Of a DNA stretch of 64,000 nucleotides, positions 3,862-51,058 are shown piece by piece (position 1 is the first letter of the stretch; every line of letters begins with the position of its first letter). The position numbers were made by a program, and so were the translations under genes. A model generated the notes under the pieces. It made no database searches. It saw nothing but the letters and a program-made list of their open reading frames with translations, and was not told the origin of the DNA. Source of the stretch: Clostridioides phage LIBA2945; the sequence record MF547663.1; one strand, given 5' to 3'.

Positions 3862-4005
3862 ATAAATGATATAAATTTATATCATAAAGACATAAAAAAA
3901 GAGACTACAACTATTTGTGCTAGGGTGTCTCTTCATAAATAAGCGAAGTGTTAATTAGAGGAAGAATCACCTGAATTGCCGTTCGGGTGATTCTTAATTT
4001 TTTGC
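3862..4005 (+). ncRNA. Candidate cis-antisense antitoxin RNA, copy 1. A plus-strand extended -10 'tgatataat' lies at 3847-3855. The terminator hairpin 3965-3994 plus a T-run lies inside the toxin ORF 3' end
   Basis: Promoter and intrinsic terminator read directly. The RNA would overlap about 50 nt of the convergent toxin ORF. The region is conserved in copy 2. Confidence 0.45.
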
Positions 4006-4130
4006 AACGTTTTCTTAAACTCATCTATTTCTTTAAAGAGTCTATTTAAATTCTGAACCAACTTAATCAAACTAATAATTATAGTTGTAAGAAATGTTAT
4101 TATCGTTAACAAACAAATTAGATATTTCAT
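3951..4130 (-). CDS. Small membrane peptide (59 aa, MKYLICLLTIITFLTTIIISLIKLVQNLNRLFKEIDEFKKTLQKIKNHPNGNSGDSSSN). Candidate type I toxin, copy 1
   Basis: Translated by hand. A strong SD 'gaggggaggtg' lies 7 nt upstream of the ATG at 4130. It has an N-terminal TM helix and a charged tail. An upstream minus-strand promoter is TTAACA-16-TATAAT with an extended TG (4224-4251). Confidence 0.6.
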   Translation of the reverse strand: MKYLICLLTIITFLTTIIISLIKLVQNLNRLFKEIDEFKKTLQKIKNHPNGNSGDSSSN

Positions 4131-4391
4131 AATATCATATCACCTCCCCTCTTGATTTGACATGGGAAGGCTTATGTATATGAAGATTCACCCTAATAGT
4201 TTTTTTATGTAGTCTCTAAAAATATTATACCATAAATTACCAATATGTTAAATTTAATATTATATTGTCTACAATTGTAAAAGAATATTGTGTTCTAAGA
4301 AGTTATTCTATTAATAGTATAGCTTTTTTATTTTTCAATGAAGATAATGACAACATTGACTATTTTGATAATATTGGAGTATAATAGTAAT

Positions 4392-4548
4392 ATAAATGAT
4401 ATAAATTTATATCATAGGGACATAAAAAAGAGACTACAAACTATTTGCTGTAGGGTGTAGTTCTTAAAGTTAACAATAAAAAGAATAGATTTATGTATTA
4501 CTTTCAGAATCACTAGACCCGCCAGTCTGGTGATTCTTTAGTTTTCTA
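4392..4548 (+). ncRNA. Candidate antisense antitoxin RNA, copy 2. Promoter TTGACT(4356-4361)-18-TATAAT(4380-4385). Terminator hairpin 4507-4536 'gaatcactagacccgccagtctggtgattc' plus a T-run
   Basis: Canonical sigma-A promoter and hairpin read directly. Convergent overlap with the toxin ORF 3' end. Confidence 0.5.
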
Positions 4549-4652
4549 ATAGATGCTTTCAAGTTTAAGATTGCATCTATTAGCTTTGTCAAATGATTGA
4601 TTATTCTTGTAATCATAATTATCATTATTAAAAACAAAACTAAGTACTCCAT
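4491..4652 (-). CDS. Small membrane peptide (53 aa, MEYLVLFLIMIIMITRIINHLTKLIDAILNLKASIRKLKNHQTGGSSDSESNT). Candidate type I toxin, copy 2, paralog of 3951-4130
   Basis: SD 'aagggggtgagac' upstream of the ATG at 4652. It has the same K-L/I-KNH-x-G-x-S-x-DS tail and the same promoter block at 4726-4760. Confidence 0.6.
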   Translation of the reverse strand: MEYLVLFLIMIIMITRIINHLTKLIDAILNLKASIRKLKNHQTGGSSDSESNT

Positions 4653-4910
4653 AGTCTCACCCCCTTTCTTACTGGGGATTTTAACTAAAGAGCCATCACC
4701 CTAATAGTCTAAACTGTAGTCTCTAAAAATATTATACCATAATTTTCCAATATGTTAAATTTAATATTATATTGACGACAGGAGTAGAATAAAGATATAA
4801 TACAGATAACAGAAAATTTAAAAATTTTACATAAGAATTACTACTTATCTATGCCACCTTAAAAAGTGGCTATTTTTCTATTCTGGTATATATTTAAGGA
4901 GGTGTTACAA

Positions 4911-5066: not shown

Positions 5067-5201
5067 TGAAATGATTTATAATATACCTATTTTAAATATG
5101 TATTAGTTGATATCAGTAATCGTCTTTATCTAGTGATTTTTTATTTATTAACTGTAAACGAATCTGTTTTACAAAAAACGTATCTGTGGTATAATAAAAG
5201 T

Positions 5202-5306
5202 AAGGAATTTAATCTACTTAATACAAAGAGTGATTGTTTCCTTAAAGTTAATTAAAAATTAATTTATCTTTTGAAACCACTCTTATTGGCGTCTGAGTGG
5301 TTTTTT
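5202..5306 (+). ncRNA. Candidate antisense antitoxin RNA, copy 3. Promoter 'aaaaaacgtatctgtggtataat' (-10 at 5190-5195). Terminator hairpin 5273-5300 'aaaccactcttattggcgtctgagtggttt' plus T6
   Basis: The promoter motif 'aaaaaacgtat.t.tg.tataat' is shared with copy 1 (3836-3855). The hairpin lies inside the toxin ORF 3' end. Confidence 0.45.
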
Positions 5307-5380
5307 GCTTTATCATATATGTAACAAGCTATTAAACTTGTTGCAATATTTAGGCAAATATTAAACACTACTGTTTCCAT
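5264..5380 (-). CDS. Small membrane peptide (38 aa, METVVFNICLNIATSLIACYIYDKAKNHSDANKSGFKR). Candidate type I toxin, copy 3
   Basis: SD 'taaggaggtg' upstream of ATG 5380. The minus-strand promoter 'tatggtataat' at about 5495-5512 gives a ~120-nt 5'UTR with a second SD-like 'aaggaaggaggtg'. Confidence 0.6.
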   Translation of the reverse strand: METVVFNICLNIATSLIACYIYDKAKNHSDANKSGFKR

Positions 5381-5582
5381 AAATTCACCTCCTTATAAAA
5401 AAATAAAGCGAGGCTCACCTCCTTCCTTTGAAGAAGTAGGCTAAATACAGAAACAACCACTCTTAGCACTTTCGATTTAAAATTCCTTACTATACTAGAT
5501 TATACCATAATTTTACAATTAATAAAATATTTTAGCTCATCTTAATTGATGGGCTTTTCTAATACAAAGAAGGTGATAAAAT

Positions 5583-24857: not shown

Positions 24858-25072
24858 TATGTTAGAGTTGATTAAAGAAATTATATTAAAATTAAAATTT
24901 CAATTATTCTTTAAATTCCCATTTAAGGAATAGTATATATAAAACATAGAACTTATTAAAAGTACTCTCTTTCATAGTATGTAATTAAAAATAAGTTATT
25001 TTGTACATTATGATTTCTTATATTTAATGGTATAATAAGATTAAATATAAGAATGTTGAAAGGAATGATATT

Positions 25073-25294
25073 ATGAAATTGCCTGAATTAGAGATTAATA
25101 TAAGTATATCAATACCAATTTTTTTAGTTATCTCTTATTTGGCTATAGTTTCTATAGTAATGCTAGGGATATCAGCTTTAAATAACTTTACTAATACAAC
25201 ATCAGTACCTATAAATGCTTTAGGTTCAACAGTTGGATTTGTTATATTTCAACTTTTAGTTAGTTTTTTTGAAAATAGAAAAATTACAGATTAA
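25073..25294 (+). CDS. Small membrane protein, 73 aa
   Basis: Two hydrophobic helices; weak SD. Confidence 0.3.
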   Translation: MKLPELEINISISIPIFLVISYLAIVSIVMLGISALNNFTNTTSVPINALGSTVGFVIFQLLVSFFENRKITD

Positions 25295-25350
25295 ATGTTA
25301 TTTACATGAAATTTTGTTTTAATATTCTTAATTTGTGGTATAATAAAAGC

Positions 25351-25473
25351 AAGGAAACATATTTTACTTAACTTTGAGTGATGTTTCCAAACTAAATTAG
25401 TTTATTTGGATTTTCTTTGGAACTTAATATTAAGTTCCCAGCCACTCTTAGTCGCGTTTGAGTGGCTTTTTAA
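25351..25473 (+). ncRNA. Candidate antisense antitoxin RNA, copy 4. Promoter 'ttgtggtataat' (-10 at 25339-25344). Terminator hairpin 25441-25468 'agccactcttagtcgcgtttgagtggct' + T5
   Basis: Same architecture and near-identical promoter ('tgtggtataataaaag.aaggaa') as copy 3. Confidence 0.45.
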
Positions 25474-25533
25474 TTTATCGTAGATATAACTAGCTATAAC
25501 ACCAGCTATAATACTCATCATTAGATTTTCCAT
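25402..25533 (-). CDS. Small membrane peptide (43 aa, MENLMMSIIAGVIASYIYDKLKSHSNATKSGWELNIKFQRKSK). Candidate type I toxin, copy 4, and closest paralog of copy 3
   Basis: SD 'gaaaggaggtg' upstream of the ATG at 25533. The minus-strand extended -10 'tgatataat' lies at about 25624-25632. It shares 'IA.YIYDK.K.HS.A.KSG' with 5264-5380. Confidence 0.6.
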   Translation of the reverse strand: MENLMMSIIAGVIASYIYDKLKSHSNATKSGWELNIKFQRKSK

Positions 25534-25715
25534 AGTTTTTCACCTCCTTTCATAAGAAAGTGAGGAAATTTCTATGGAAACACCACTCACAGCTTTTTCA
25601 AATATTTATTCCTTGCTATGTTTATTATATCATAAATATTGGAAATATAAAATTTTAATATTTTCTAAAATCTGACGCTTTAAACGCCATTCTAAGGCTT
25701 TATAAAAATTTACCT

Positions 25716-27560
25716 TTATATTTGTACCTTTGTTTTTTTATCATACAAATTATATATTGGATATAATTTAAATTTATTCAATAATTCTTTACTCATATTA
25801 TTCATATTATTTTTAGCTTCTTCATACTTTTCAATTAATATATTTATCGCACATTGAATCATTATGTCTTTTGAGTTTTTTCTTTTAATATTATCTAAAT
25901 CAAGTATTTCATCAATGCTAAAATTTCTAATCCTTTTTATTATTTGATATTTATTAATTTTGTTTATATCTACATCAACTTCATTTTCTATCCATTCTAA
26001 TAACTCTAGTGCCTCAATTAAATATTCTTTAATAAGTATTTTATCATAGTATTTAATTAATTCTAAAATATATGACATGACTCTATCTGTATACTCTGGT
26101 GTTTTTTTATATTTTTTAATATTTATAGTTGCTTTACTTACATCGAAATTAATACTATCCATATCATTATAATTTAAAAGTATATATGGACTGCATTGCA
26201 TGTCTCCTTCTCTTTGAGTAATAGTAAGGTTATTTTTTTTATCAAAAATATTAATAAGATTCCAACTATTATCTGTTTCTATCTTATATAAGATTATTTT
26301 CTTTTCATTAATTTTCATATATGCAAATCCTGAATGTTTACTCATATTCTTTTTTTTAATTGTTTTATTATTAATAAATATACTTATAAGTGTATTTATC
26401 TTCCCATAATCTTCCTGAGACATATTATCTAATAAGAAATTTTCTTGTTTTATTTCAAGCATCTCTAATAGATTCTTAAAATCTTCAAAAAATAATATAT
26501 TTTCTATTAAATCATTTTCTTCGCATGGCATAGTTTTTAAATCTAAATCAATAAGTTTATCTTTTGTTGAAAATTCTTTTATAAGTACTTTTTTATGTTT
26601 AAATATATCTAATAACATCTTTAAATTATTTAAATGACTATCAACAGTTCCACTTGGTTCTTTTATCGTAAAATTTATATCAATAGACTTATTGATTAAT
26701 TTCTCATCTAATATACGGTAAATATAAATAACAATAAAATTATTGATAGTTATTTTGTGATTGGTTTTATTTACTGTTGATATATATTCATTATTTTTAT
26801 AAATATTATTTTTTATAAAAATATCTACAATAGTTTTTGTATTTAATTCTTTAAGATACAATTTATTCACACAAGGTAAATCAATTGTATCTAAATCTTC
26901 ATGTTTAAGTGGTTTGTAAGCATACACACTTCTATTAAATAAATCATATCTATTATCTATTTCTGCAATATCTATTGAAATCTCTTTGTCTCTTTCACTT
27001 AGTTCTATTTGTTTATCTACTAAATTTTTTGTTTGTTTATTTATATTACGATAAAACGAATTAACTATTCTTTCAAAATGATTATTTTCAGGTCTTAGTT
27101 CATATAGCTCTACAGACTTGGTCAATTGATTTTTCTTCGTTCTATCTATTTCATTTAATATATTTATCAAATCAACTGGAAGTAAATTTCTATAATAAAC
27201 TTTTATTTTGTTAACACTTTTAATTTCAACAACAAATAAAATAACACCTTCATTATTGTAGTAGTTTCTTAAATCACTAACATCCATTGAAAAAGTTCTT
27301 TTTTTGCCACTTAACTTTTTTACCTCCTTTGCTTTAAGTTGTATATTTATTTTTCTTAATAAATTTTCTTTTTTATTATCTAAACAATTTTCCTTCTCAA
27401 TTTTATTTTTTTCATATAAAAATAGTTCTCCGTCCCAAGATGGTGTTTTGTCATTTGATTGAATATTTGCTTCAATATTTCCCGCAATCGCACATAATTT
27501 TTGAATCTCAGCAATAGATAAATTTTCCTTGTGTATATTTGAAATCTTACTTGTTCCCAT
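25716..27560 (-). CDS. Large hypothetical protein, 614 aa. The N-terminal ~120 aa has a PD-(D/E)XK-like D..E.K arrangement ('SWDGELFLY ... ILFVVEIKS'). Candidate defence/abortive-infection protein
   Basis: Motif read from the translation only. It sits next to the integrase. SD 'aaggaggtgg' upstream. Confidence 0.3.
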   Translation of the reverse strand: MGTSKISNIHKENLSIAEIQKLCAIAGNIEANIQSNDKTPSWDGELFLYEKNKIEKENCLDNKKENLLRKINIQLKAKEVKKLSGKKRTFSMDVSDLRNYYNNEGVILFVVEIKSVNKIKVYYRNLLPVDLINILNEIDRTKKNQLTKSVELYELRPENNHFERIVNSFYRNINKQTKNLVDKQIELSERDKEISIDIAEIDNRYDLFNRSVYAYKPLKHEDLDTIDLPCVNKLYLKELNTKTIVDIFIKNNIYKNNEYISTVNKTNHKITINNFIVIYIYRILDEKLINKSIDINFTIKEPSGTVDSHLNNLKMLLDIFKHKKVLIKEFSTKDKLIDLDLKTMPCEENDLIENILFFEDFKNLLEMLEIKQENFLLDNMSQEDYGKINTLISIFINNKTIKKKNMSKHSGFAYMKINEKKIILYKIETDNSWNLINIFDKKNNLTITQREGDMQCSPYILLNYNDMDSINFDVSKATINIKKYKKTPEYTDRVMSYILELIKYYDKILIKEYLIEALELLEWIENEVDVDINKINKYQIIKRIRNFSIDEILDLDNIKRKNSKDIMIQCAINILIEKYEEAKNNMNNMSKELLNKFKLYPIYNLYDKKTKVQI

Positions 27561-28717: not shown

Positions 28718-29005
28718 GGTTATCCCTCCTATGAAAATTCATATACTTATTATACCATACAGAGGAGGCAAAAAATAGTCATTTTAGCTGACTTTCAACT
28801 GACTTTTTTAATTCTTTTATTTATATAATTATTGAAATTACTTAATTATAAAGAAATAAGACATAGAATACACAATTCTATGCCTTACACTATCACGCTA
28901 TTATTTTTATATATTTTCCATTTTAAGCAATCGATTTTCCGAACAGGATTAATTATAAGCATTAATTTTTACAAAGCCTTAAAATCGAATTTAAGAGGTT
29001 GTTTT

Positions 29006-29764
29006 TTATTTTCTAGTGTATTTACATTTTGGATACTGACTACATCCCCAAAATTCACCATACTGACCTTTTCTTTTAATCAAATGTCCAATTTGACATC
29101 TAGGGCACTTATCCTCTTCAGTAATATTTTTTAAATTTCTAACATGCTCTCTAGTATTTTGATTAGTGGTTTTCATACAATCAAAAATTTTATCTCTGAT
29201 AATTTTTATTTCTTCTTTATCAATAGTCACATCTTTACATTTACTTATTGTACTTAATATCTCACTTTCATTTATAACTATAATATTATTTCCACTTATC
29301 ATTACATTTTTTAGTGTAGCTTTGTCTGAAAAAACAATTATTGAATATATATTATATTTATTTCCTATTATATTTTCTATTGCTTTAATATGAGCATAAT
29401 TTTGTCTTACCGGATTATAGAATGTATTTTTAGTTTTTCCTACAATTTGAGTCCATACTTTATCTTTATCATTTCCGTAAATATATCCACTAAAATTTTT
29501 ACATTCTATAACAAATATTCCATACATAGAAATCACAATACTATCAATTTGTGTAGTCTTATTTGAGCCTGGTACAATAATGTCTTTAATTATTATGTAA
29601 TCTTTGCCTAATCTGCTAAGTATAAAATCTAATCTAAGTTCTCCAAATCCACCTTTTACTTGTATCTTAGTATCCTTAATAATATTATTAACTTCTTTTA
29701 CAGTTTTACTAACTTCTTCTGACATAAATACCTTTTCAAATATCTCCTTAAACATCCTCACCAT
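29006..29764 (-). CDS. NERD (nuclease-related domain) protein with a C-terminal topoisomerase-type C4 zinc ribbon (CPRCQIGHL...CSQYPKCKY)
   Basis: NERD-like central region. C-terminal CxxC...CxxxxC ribbon read directly. Confidence 0.5.
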   Translation of the reverse strand: MVRMFKEIFEKVFMSEEVSKTVKEVNNIIKDTKIQVKGGFGELRLDFILSRLGKDYIIIKDIIVPGSNKTTQIDSIVISMYGIFVIECKNFSGYIYGNDKDKVWTQIVGKTKNTFYNPVRQNYAHIKAIENIIGNKYNIYSIIVFSDKATLKNVMISGNNIIVINESEILSTISKCKDVTIDKEEIKIIRDKIFDCMKTTNQNTREHVRNLKNITEEDKCPRCQIGHLIKRKGQYGEFWGCSQYPKCKYTRK

Positions 29765-29877
29765 CTACCTTTCGACATATATTTTAATTATAGCATCTAA
29801 TACAATATGAAGTAGATGAAATATTCGACATAAATGCAAAAAAGTCACCTAAATTAATAGATGACTTAATTATTTTA

Positions 29878-30048
29878 TGCTACTTTTTCAATATATTTTT
29901 CATTAACAACATAAGTCTTAAACTTATGTACTACCATAATATCCTGCATGTTCTCTAGTGTCATTATAACTCTAACACATTTATTCCTAATTTCTTTTGG
30001 TAATTCTAAGTCATTTATTAAATTTACATAATCATCATATCTGTACAT
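29878..30048 (-). CDS. Small hypothetical protein (56 aa, MYRYDDYVNLINDLELPKEIRNKCVRV...)
   Basis: SD 'tgggaggag' 8 nt upstream of the ATG at 30048. Not in the track. Confidence 0.3.
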
Positions 30049-30212
30049 TTAATACTCCTCCCAAAGTTAGTCTAGGATATATTATAGTACTCTAATTCAA
30101 TTTTTTCAATAGAAAATCTTAATCCTGTATAGATATTTTCTAAATGATATAATGTCATACATTTGTCATCATAGTAATAATTATATTTTTCTAGGATTAT
30201 ATACTTATTCAT

Positions 30213-50172: not shown

Positions 50173-50212
50173 AAAACCCTCCTTTTAATTTTATTCAGTT
50201 TATAAATATTAA

Positions 50213-51058
50213 TTAAAATGGTAAATCTGATTCTTCAATATTTATGTTATTTTTTTGTGCATCTTTTTCTTTCATGGCATTTTCTTTTTCTTCCATTTTA
50301 TCTATCATGGCTACTATATTATCCTTATAGAATGGATTAGGCTTCCCATCTTCACCAAAATCATTTTCTTTTGATATCTTATTTCCTGAACCTCCAGTTA
50401 TTCTAAGATATTTTATTATTTTATCTTTTTTCCCTGTACCAAATCCACCAGTTCCTTCTATTATCTCAGTTACTATATCTCCTTCTAATTGTGGTACATC
50501 TCCCACTTTATATAGCTTTTCAAATTCTTTTATTACTTCTGTATTATCAATTACAAGTCTAACTCTAAATCCATTATCATTGTATTTATTCATTATTCCT
50601 ATTACTTCTAATCCCTCTTCTATTTTTATTATTTCCTCCAAGTATACATATGCTCTCCATAATATACCTGCCTTTATAGGTAGTTTTGCATCTTTTTGTC
50701 TGTTACAAAATTTACCTTGTATTCTAAATCCTTCATGTTTTTCTCCATCACTATAATATGTATTGTCATCTAATTGACAGGTGCATCTAACTATTTCTCC
50801 TCTACCCTCTTCTGCTCTAGTTACAATATCATTCACAACTGTTTCTAATCCCTGTGATATCTTATTAACTCCTCCAGCAGATGTGTATATGCTTCCATAA
50901 TAATCAACTATTTCATTCTTATCTTGTGATATAGCAACATTAAGTTTAAACTTTATTGCTTCTTGTGGAGTTCCTTCTTTTACTCTTTCTGCTGCTAATA
51001 TATCTAACACTTCCCCACTAACAAAAACTTCATTGTAATTTACATTTTTTTTCGCCAT
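50213..51058 (-). CDS. Atypical single-stranded DNA-binding protein candidate, 281 aa
   Basis: C-terminal acidic tail ending '...ESDLPF' like the SSB DDDIPF tip. Next to ERF. Confidence 0.4.
   Translation of the reverse strand: MAKKNVNYNEVFVSGEVLDILAAERVKEGTPQEAIKFKLNVAISQDKNEIVDYYGSIYTSAGGVNKISQGLETVVNDIVTRAEEGRGEIVRCTCQLDDNTYYSDGEKHEGFRIQGKFCNRQKDAKLPIKAGILWRAYVYLEEIIKIEEGLEVIGIMNKYNDNGFRVRLVIDNTEVIKEFEKLYKVGDVPQLEGDIVTEIIEGTGGFGTGKKDKIIKYLRITGGSGNKISKENDFGEDGKPNPFYKDNIVAMIDKMEEKENAMKEKDAQKNNINIEESDLPF

Follow-up and report, generated by a model that had tools for sequence, protein, structure and literature searches.

What is encoded in the few hundred base pairs that separate two convergent gene blocks of Clostridioides phage LIBA2945, and what might it do for the element that carries it? 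The DNA analysed here is a 64,000-nucleotide (nt) stretch of the phage record MF547663.1 (hereafter the window), in which a plus-strand block ends at 25294, a minus-strand block starts at 25716 and the locus lies exactly between them, as an earlier note on this DNA had placed it. That note had read the locus as the fourth copy of a toxin/antisense module. We conclude that it is very probably a type I toxin-antitoxin (TA) module of the CD0956.2-RCd10 / CD0904.1-RCd13 family, carried by a phage-plasmid of the phiCD211/LIBA6276 type and serving mainly in post-segregational killing. The locus is a further, mis-annotated member of a family described in 2018-2020 and already reported to be ubiquitous in C. 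difficile phages, a status that the earlier note did not recognise. Described members include CD2517.1-RCd8, CD2907.1-RCd9, CD0956.2-RCd10, CD0904.1-RCd13 and CD0956.3-RCd14 (Maikova 2018, PMC5961336; Peltier 2020, PMC7699646); phiCD211 is not named in the text or supplements of Peltier 2020 (PMC7699646).

Homology of the peptide to type I toxins

The assignment starts from one short open reading frame (ORF):

25402..25533, minus strand: toxin ORF of 43 amino acids, MENLMMSIIAGVIASYIYDKLKSHSNATKSGWELNIKFQRKSK, with a hydrophobic N-terminal segment and then a Lys/Arg-rich tail

The ORF encodes exactly the peptide that had been quoted, consisting of NLMMSIIAGVIASYIY and then DKLKSHSNATKSGWELNIKFQRKSK with seven Lys or Arg residues, and its length falls inside the 30-56 amino acids given for the family (PMC6563280). 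It is currently annotated as a hypothetical protein (LIBA6276_00054 / WP_021377021.1). Residues 1-41 match the NCBIfam model NF047374 (‘CD_typeI_toxin: type I toxin-antitoxin system toxin’) with E=7e-15 and 55.1 bits, and the peptide falls into PHROG 738 (E=5e-16), as does the peptide of a second module in the window, copy 3. By tblastn, homologs turned up in 43 phage records of C. difficile, among them phiCD38-2 gp33, which was named as a type I toxin homolog by Peltier et al. 2020 (PMC7699646), and plasmid hits came from 39 records, with Paraclostridium sordellii and P. bifermentans represented; homologs on P. sordellii plasmids had already been reported (PMC7699646). Pfam gave no match for the peptide, and none to Hok. 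Rfam had no family at gathering score anywhere in the window, and across 25250-25720 it returned only a chance-level match to CRISPR-DR41 (E=0.86). A profile search of 1.8 billion cluster representatives recovered only 11 clusters, with no link to other toxin families, so that the toxin family is narrow and its small ORFs are under-called.

Within the family the peptide is an intermediate form, with a short hydrophobic segment as in the ‘short’ toxins of 34-35 amino acids and with the KSGWE-L-NIKF-K tail of the ‘large’ toxins of 50-53 amino acids. The ratio of non-synonymous to synonymous polymorphism (pN/pS) is 0.27-0.43 against four diverged alleles, which indicates that the ORF is under purifying selection; it is intact in 10 of the 11 distinct module alleles collected, and the same allele recurs unchanged in at least four independent records.

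Predicted layout of the two convergent RNAs

Around the ORF lie the signals for a toxin messenger RNA (mRNA) on the minus strand, with its 5′ untranslated region (UTR) and Shine-Dalgarno (SD) sequence, and for an antisense RNA on the plus strand:

25624..25651, minus strand: toxin promoter, TTTATA, a 16-nt spacer and the TG-extended -10 element TGATATAAT
25345..25617, minus strand: predicted toxin mRNA of about 273 nt, its start placed at AGCAAG, 6-7 nt after the -10 element
25534..25617, minus strand: 5′UTR of 84 nt, SD sequence GGAGGTG at 25541-25547, 7 nt before the ATG
25315..25344, plus strand: antitoxin promoter, TG-extended -10 element TGGTATAAT at 25336-25344
25349..25471, plus strand: predicted antitoxin RNA of ~123 nt, complementary throughout to the final ~120 nt of the toxin mRNA
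25440..25471, plus strand: antitoxin intrinsic terminator, stem AGCCACTC/GAGTGGCT at 25440-25467 and T-run to 25471, inside the toxin ORF
25353..25388, no single strand: hairpin GGAAACAU...AUGUUUCC, on the minus strand the toxin mRNA terminator, followed by UUGCUUUUAUUAU, and on the plus strand the antitoxin 5′ stem-loop

The toxin promoter scored 10/12 in a promoter scan, with the TG extension; its -10 element is conserved in all homologous modules and the start region AGCAAG in those of Clostridioides. The 3′ end of the mRNA (25345) is placed past the hairpin and UUGCUUUU, and the resulting length compares with 256-313 nt for the toxin mRNAs of homologous modules.

On the opposite strand the convergent promoter TGTGGTATAAT is limited, within the window, to this locus and copy 3. 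The string TGTGGTATAATAAAAGCAAGGAA stands at 25334-25356 (+), and a search of the 64 kb that allowed up to three mismatches found it again only in copy 3, at 5185-5207 with one mismatch, where shuffled sequence gave an expectation of 0.00 matches; the near identity of the two promoters that had been claimed is thus borne out. The promoter also fits the form TGTTT-N16-TGGTATA at 25315-25342, an instance of the pattern WGWTT-N13-17-KGGTAWA, which we take to be that of SigB-type promoters. This pattern occurs three times in the 64 kb (25315-25342, 5165-5193 and 50197-50225), and two of the three are the antitoxin promoters of the present module, copy 4, and of copy 3. SigB promoters upstream of both genes have been reported for the family (PMC5961336). 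The motif is kept in Clostridioides modules as CTTGCTTTTATTATAYCAY, the reverse complement of the antitoxin promoter, and the identical 19-nt promoter core, GTGGTATAATAAAAGCAAG, is present in primer JP663, which was made for cloning the CD0956.3-RCd14 module.

The antitoxin would target the toxin 3′UTR together with the last 24 codons. Its predicted fold has an energy of -37 kcal/mol (z=-5.6 against dinucleotide shuffles) and consists of a 5′ stem-loop, a pair of hairpins in the middle and the terminator, and in homologous modules antitoxins of 109-134 nt keep this layout despite different sequence. The terminator hairpin, which had been described as embedded in the ORF at a position one base further on (25441-25468), is with its T-run the only terminator-like site in a scan of 25000-25800. 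Antisense promoter and terminator are both conserved across all homologous modules examined, and the antitoxin is predicted from these sequence features.

For the pairs CD2517.1/RCd8 and CD0956.2/RCd10 the published values are 298-306 nt for the mRNA, 83-88 for the 5′UTR, 134-140 for the antitoxin and 131-134 for the overlap (PMC5961336), and the corresponding predictions here are ~273, 84, ~123 and ~120 nt, so that the predicted transcript sizes and layout match the published family. The RNA anatomy is also shared more widely. In the 23 homologous modules that we extracted, the common order is a TG-extended -10 element, the start region, a 5′UTR of 75-113 nt, the SD sequence GGAGGTG and the ORF, within which an A-run precedes a hairpin of the CCACTC...GAGTGG type; next come a 3′ hairpin and, in Clostridioides, CTTGCTTTTATTATAYCAY. 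Variants of the in-ORF hairpin have GAGTGA in P. sordellii and GGGTGA in phage CDMH1. Together with the NF047374 match and the homology to phiCD38-2 gp33, this layout upholds the toxin/antisense reading from which the analysis set out.

Folding of the toxin mRNA and a predicted 5′-3′ clamp

The full-length toxin mRNA folds with -96.3 kcal/mol, compared with -47.7 +/- 4.3 kcal/mol in dinucleotide shuffles (z=-11.3). Part of this structure is local: pairing of CCUCACUUUC with GAAAGGAGG covers the SD sequence in an anti-SD hairpin, and UUUCCAUAG pairs with CUAUGGAAA across the AUG. The first 100 nt by themselves adopt the structure that hides these two elements as their minimum-energy fold. The paired probability is 0.76 for the SD sequence (for a window one base off GGAGGUG) and 1.0 for the AUG, and neither changes when the antitoxin target is masked.

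A second, long-range component follows from an imperfect inverted repeat at the ends of the module:

25331..25398, no strand: left arm of the imperfect, terminal inverted repeat, comprising the antitoxin promoter and the first ~45 nt of the antitoxin
25566..25637, no strand: right arm, comprising the toxin promoter and the first ~50 nt of the toxin mRNA, which pair with the 3′ end of that mRNA

By this arrangement the 5′ domain of the antitoxin is a copy of the toxin 5′ arm, and in 22 of the 23 homologous modules strong pairing, with compensatory changes, is predicted between the opening ~45 nt of the toxin mRNA and its final ~55 nt. When the first 19 modules were folded, the minimum-energy structures of all 19 had 28-45 long-range pairs. 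Duplex energies between 5′ and 3′ arms are -32 to -50 kcal/mol for cognate pairings and -14 to -32 kcal/mol for most pairings between groups. RNAalifold, given 14 diverse sequences, returned unprompted the clamp together with the hairpins at the SD sequence and in the ORF, with compensatory changes at 18 of 42 pairs. Within the clamp taken by itself, 92.8% of cells pair, and both sides have changed at 11 of 25 pairs; none of 500 shuffles reached these values, and a slid partner gave 44-56%.

The arms themselves differ from group to group. The 5′ arm contains the stretches AGCAAGGAA and GAGUGGUGUUUCC, and co-varying arm pairs are AGCAAGGAA/UUCCUUGCU, AGCAAGAGAA/UUCUCUUGCU, AGUAAGG/CCUUACU and AGCAAGAAGA/UCUUCUUGCU, to which copy 3 adds AGUAAGGAA/UUCCUUACU and Paraclostridium GGAACUGAAAAUCUAU/AUAGAUUUUCAGUUCC, where the clamp is kept with unrelated sequence. 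Masking the antitoxin target lowers the paired probability of the first 12 nt of the mRNA from 0.73 to 0.20. In the tox4, tox3 and CDHM13 groups G-U pairs give a preference of 8-11 kcal/mol for the toxin strand.

One of the homologous modules, L036 on the C. difficile plasmid pB12_1 (NZ_CP132142, 30736-30873), has a 5′ half of the phiCDHM13 type and a 3′ half of the phiCD38-2 type, and encodes a toxin of 45 amino acids. The two halves are joined at the conserved CCACTC..GAGTGG hairpin, which appears to act as a recombination point.

We did not find the clamp stated in the literature on the family, so far as its texts were available to us; Maikova et al. mention only sequestration of the ribosome-binding site (RBS), as ‘data not shown’ (PMC5961336). 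The family-wide clamp and the mimicry of the toxin 5′ arm by the antitoxin are the only part of this analysis that could add something new.

The antitoxin terminator within the toxin codons

Since the antitoxin terminates inside the toxin ORF, one stretch of DNA has to be read both as a terminator and as codons. K.KSHS is the translation of AAA-(N)-AAA-AGC-CAC-TCA, and KSGW that of AAG-AGT-GGC-TGG; the U-tract of the terminator is read from the Lys codons of the toxin, and the motif K.K.HS...KSGW corresponds to the terminator arms and the U-tract. Covariation is visible here as well, with GC/AU at the column pair 221-249 in 6 of the 14 sequences. In phage CDMH1 the stem has changed from CCACTC/GAGTGG to TCACCC/GGGTGA, a compensatory replacement through which the peptide has HP and GD in place of HS and SG. 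As this stem change alters the peptide, part of the motif by which the earlier note had linked copies 3 and 4 reflects a constraint on the RNA.

How the module would work

According to the model that we favour, the minus strand would give rise to an mRNA of ~273 nt for a 43-residue membrane toxin, and the plus strand, from a strong promoter of its own, to an antisense RNA of ~123 nt ending at the terminator inside the toxin ORF. Folding and covariation suggest that the toxin mRNA would be translationally silent once made, because local structure in the 5′UTR hides both the SD sequence and the AUG. After termination the first ~45 nt would zip onto the last ~55 nt, and the clamp so formed would bury both ends of the mRNA. 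For a related pair the published half-lives are 89 min for the toxin mRNA and 8 min for the antitoxin, and toxin mRNAs of homologs are stabilised when RNase III, J or Y is depleted; burial of both ends by the clamp would explain the long half-life of the toxin mRNA. For the mRNA of the present locus, the extreme z-score of its fold (-11.3) and its buried ends are indirect hints of a similar stability.

As long as the element is present, the short-lived antitoxin would, by analogy with homologs and with type I TA systems in general, pair with the 3′ half of the mRNA and displace its 5′ arm. Pairing and displacement would create an extended duplex as a substrate for RNase III and lay the 5′ end bare, and the mRNA would be destroyed. 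If the element is lost the antitoxin would decay first, and the surviving mRNA would be translated into toxin and stop growth, the outcome known as post-segregational killing. By this route the module would probably help to keep the element in the cell. Experiments on homologs have demonstrated membrane toxins that arrest growth and are neutralised by the cognate antisense RNA, as well as stabilisation of a plasmid and of phiCD630-1 in its excised, episomal form (PMC7699646), and they make the role in element maintenance that the earlier note had raised a plausible one.

We extend this model to the whole C. difficile/Paraclostridium family only tentatively, and think the extension somewhat more apt to fail in one of its parts than to hold in full. 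It would make the family a cassette of ~330 bp with imperfect terminal inverted repeats and a co-varying clamp, in which strand displacement by the antitoxin acts as a switch that opens the mRNA to attack by RNases J, Y and III. A hok-like fold-back would then have arisen independently in a Gram-positive system with 3′ overlap, and the motif K.K.HS...KSGW would be dictated largely by the antitoxin terminator.

Alternative explanations

The terminal inverted repeat could instead be a feature of the DNA, arising from duplicated promoter-leader cassettes, a regulator site or a recombination scar, with two RNAs that simply begin with similar 5′ stem-loops; we rate this explanation as rather unlikely, if well worth weighing. 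Both arms include -10 elements and each RNA can form a local 5′ hairpin of its own, and because the arms also hold both promoters and the 5′ and 3′ hairpins, the constraints that we attribute to the clamp are confounded. Several lineages likewise count against an RNA clamp. The strand asymmetry of duplex energy is close to zero or runs the other way in roughly a third of lineages (L022, L030, L031/L032 and L033), the 5′ arms of L031/L032 pair better with the 3′ arms of L029/L030 (-38 to -42 kcal/mol) than with their own (-34 to -35 kcal/mol), the cognate duplex of L022 (-32 kcal/mol) is no better than several non-cognate ones, and the natural chimera L036 persists with mismatched arms and a poor clamp (-24.7 kcal/mol). 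A DNA-level origin does not, however, readily account for a complementarity that reaches +45 of the transcript and co-varies between groups of unrelated sequence, nor for the enrichment of G-U pairs on the toxin strand in most groups, and both arms occur together mainly in one transcript, the toxin mRNA. The clamp is best regarded as a computational prediction, supported by covariation.

Other alternatives concern what the module does, or whether it does anything at present. The same type I TA module might have been selected for defence or for a stress response (abortive infection, phage exclusion or SigB-linked growth arrest), which we consider unlikely. The SigB-type fit of the antitoxin promoter would suit such a role, as would the reported regulation of the family by SigB and in biofilms and its frequent linkage to CRISPR arrays (PMC5961336, PMC6563280), the position of the module in a variable region with an integrase and a NERD-domain gene nearby, and the inclusion of abortive infection among the functions proposed for TA systems (PMC7699646). 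Against this, stabilisation of a plasmid and of an excised, episomal prophage is the sole function shown for the family (PMC7699646), no CRISPR array lies within 6 kb of the module, the C. difficile CRISPR repeat, in the form that we take it to have, is absent from the 64-kb window, and the neighbouring genes have no significant PADLOC match, the NERD protein giving only a weak PglW-like one. We hold it very unlikely that the locus is a mere remnant, decaying or purely selfish and devoid of current toxic activity. Decay does occur in related elements, where frameshifted alleles (L014, P0013-P0015) imply that the toxin can be lost and orphan antitoxin remnants (L016-L019) are also found, and the NF047374 score of the peptide falls just under the 60-bit NCBIfam equivalog cut-off, which accounts for its ‘hypothetical’ label. 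In the window, on the other hand, the ORF, the SD sequence, both promoters and both terminators are intact, the recurrence of the identical allele and a pN/pS below 0.45 point to a maintained gene, and variants of 34-35 amino acids are toxic (PMC7699646). Hardly credible is a small membrane protein outside TA biology, such as a holin or antiholin, with antisense features that are coincidental. An endolysin gene does lie ~5 kb upstream, but the PHROG holin match has an E-value of 0.15, which is not significant and led us to reject a holin identity, whereas the homology to type I toxins is strong and an antisense promoter and terminator accompany the ORF in all homologous modules examined. Some points nevertheless weigh against a functional module in post-segregational killing, as we read it: transcription, toxicity and a stabilising effect at this locus are all predicted from homology, as is the toxicity of the intermediate, 43-residue form in particular, and the module may not be needed for stability because large phage-plasmids of this kind carry other candidate maintenance functions, such as the Doc-family protein reported in phiCD211-like prophages (PMC10778935).

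Comparison with known systems

The closest relatives are the type I TA systems of C. difficile, with which the module shares a homologous toxin, predicted convergent transcripts with a 3′-end overlap of ~120-130 nt, a 5′UTR of ~84 nt with a sequestered RBS, an antitoxin of ~125-140 nt with a Rho-independent terminator, the same antitoxin promoter core, and carriage on phages or plasmids. It differs from them in its intermediate peptide of 43 amino acids, under the cut-off and annotated as hypothetical, in being known from sequence alone, in its host, a ~130-kb episomal phage of the phiCD211 type, and in the absence of an adjacent CRISPR array, an adjacency that is frequent without being defining and is typical of chromosomal members.

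Like hok/Sok of plasmid R1 and AapA1/IsoA1 of Helicobacter pylori, the module would follow the logic of post-segregational killing, in which a stable, highly folded toxin mRNA is opposed by a labile antisense RNA. In those systems the full-length mRNA is closed by long-distance 5′-3′ pairing and translationally inert, a state that is predicted here. They have no sequence homology to the present locus, and their antisense RNAs target the 5′ leader and their mRNAs are activated by 3′ trimming, whereas here the antitoxin overlaps the 3′ end. The SD sequence would here be hidden by a local hairpin, independent of the clamp, rather than by the 3′ end. The locus works somewhat like hok and is not a member of the hok/Sok family.

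In the par system of Enterococcus faecalis (Fst/RNA II) transcription is also convergent, and repeats at the 5′ ends of both RNAs shape their interaction, as here. The par repeats are direct in the DNA, so that the 5′ ends of the RNAs are complementary, and a bidirectional terminator is shared. Here the repeats are inverted, both 5′ ends are alike, and the complementarity lies within the toxin mRNA.

The Bacillus subtilis pairs txpA/RatA and bsrG/SR4 resemble the module in their Gram-positive host, their location in prophages or the skin element, their 3′-overlapping cis-antisense RNAs, the sequestration of the SD sequence in the 5′UTR and RNase III-type degradation of the duplex. To our knowledge, neither a co-varying 5′-3′ clamp nor an antitoxin that copies the toxin 5′ arm has been described for them. 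They share no sequence homology with the locus (PMC6563280).

Other copies in the window

Copy 3, which had been named as the closest paralog, is indeed the sole paralog of the 43-residue peptide in the window (tblastn E=9e-9, 50% identity), and its own peptide matches NF047374 with E=5e-7:

5165..5510, minus strand: paralogous module (copy 3), with an ORF of 38 amino acids at 5264..5380 (-), an antitoxin promoter at 5165-5207 (+) and an in-ORF hairpin

Copies 3 and 4 lie ~20 kb apart. Their identity in the RNA overlap, estimated by eye, is ~60-65%, and what they have in common is limited to the -10 region and the hairpin arms; given this divergence, cross-protection between them is unlikely, and each antitoxin is probably specific for its own toxin. 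Published cross-reaction between modules needed near-identity (PMC6563280). The 5′UTR of copy 3 (5385-5470) has 111 nt and two GGAGGTG motifs, owing to an insertion of ~28 nt relative to copy 4.

In four IMG/VR contigs (L016-L019, at about 1100-1500 in each) we noted loci of the copy-3 type in which toxin promoter, 5′UTR and start codon are replaced by unrelated sequence, while antitoxin promoter, hairpin and the 3′ part of the ORF are retained; they look like orphan antitoxin remnants.

The earlier note had the same module repeated across the element, which stands for copies 3 and 4 and not for copies 1 and 2. The latter two (ORFs 3951..4130 and 4491..4652, minus strand, 59 and 53 amino acids) belong to PHROG 5620 and have no NCBIfam or Pfam match. 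Inspected by eye (3951-4240 and 4491-4745), they have minus-strand TGGTATAAT promoters and the same layout as the TA modules, and a plus-strand hairpin with a T-run lies at about 4508-4540, inside the 3′ end of the ORF in the copy-2 region. Copies 1 and 2 may represent a second, undescribed family of type I TA-like modules in tandem.

Host element and genomic context

The region of the locus matches Clostridioides phage LIBA6276 (MF547662) and the C. difficile plasmid NZ_CP029155 with 100% identity, and the C. difficile CD161 plasmid, circular and 130.5 kb in size, matches at 100% around the locus. Other phiCD211/phiCDIF1296T-like elements have 84-98% identity there, and several were deposited as plasmids; in phiCDIF1296T (DSM 1296 / ATCC 9689) the homologous locus lies at 51.6-51.9 kb. 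Among plasmid records of C. difficile or Clostridioides sp. there are 10 related elements, of which eight measure 127-136 kb, like the phiCD211-type element; topology is circular in both of the related plasmid records that we opened (n=2). Judged by these matches, the window, whose G+C content is 26.6% (AT-rich), is part of a phiCD211/LIBA6276-like C. difficile phage-plasmid that would persist as a circular plasmid.

Structural and lysis genes lie in the plus-strand block, together with genes for a XerC/D-type recombinase, two regulators and a CWB2 surface protein and with an ORF for a membrane protein of 73 amino acids. Flanks differ among relatives and the conserved unit spans about 25311-25661; in phiCD211 the module abuts the integrase at one end and has a BlaI-type regulator at the other. 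Immediately beyond the module in the window stands one further ORF:

25716-27560, minus strand: ORF of 614 amino acids, present in LIBA6276 and the CD161 plasmid, absent from phiCD211

This ORF is variable cargo, and its product has no match in Pfam or PADLOC. The locus had been described as lying next to an integrase/defence islet: the integrase is confirmed (PF00589), and a protein of 252 amino acids with NERD and Zn-ribbon domains follows; the defence part is not established, since the 614-residue neighbour has no match and the NERD protein only the weak PglW-like one.

The hydrophobic ORF of 73 amino acids at 25073-25294 (+), PHROG 26516, has its own TGGTATAAT promoter near 25029-25037. 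It shares its strand with the antitoxin, with no terminator before it; read-through could produce longer antitoxin-containing transcripts that end at the in-ORF terminator. Past the integrase, the LIBA6276 annotation lists an exonuclease gene and an insertion sequence (IS)-family transposase (L001, 10369-12524). Compared with that annotation by ORF size and strand, window positions 28832-30200 differ, and the ORFs there include the one for the 252-residue NERD protein.

Implications

The present gene and its copy-3 paralog, which are labelled hypothetical or left unannotated in phiCD211-like phages and plasmids, can now be named as type I toxins with cis-antisense antitoxins. The phiCD211-like elements are prevalent episomes, ~130 kb in size, of a major pathogen, and the presence of two diverged modules that probably do not cross-react, from a family that stabilises the excised, episomal form of a prophage, would account simply for their persistence; the modules are also obvious targets for curing cells of the element. 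None of these findings overturns current understanding. The clamp, together with the mimicry of the toxin 5′ arm by the 5′ domain of the antitoxin, would if real provide a testable mechanism for the very long half-life of the toxin mRNA.

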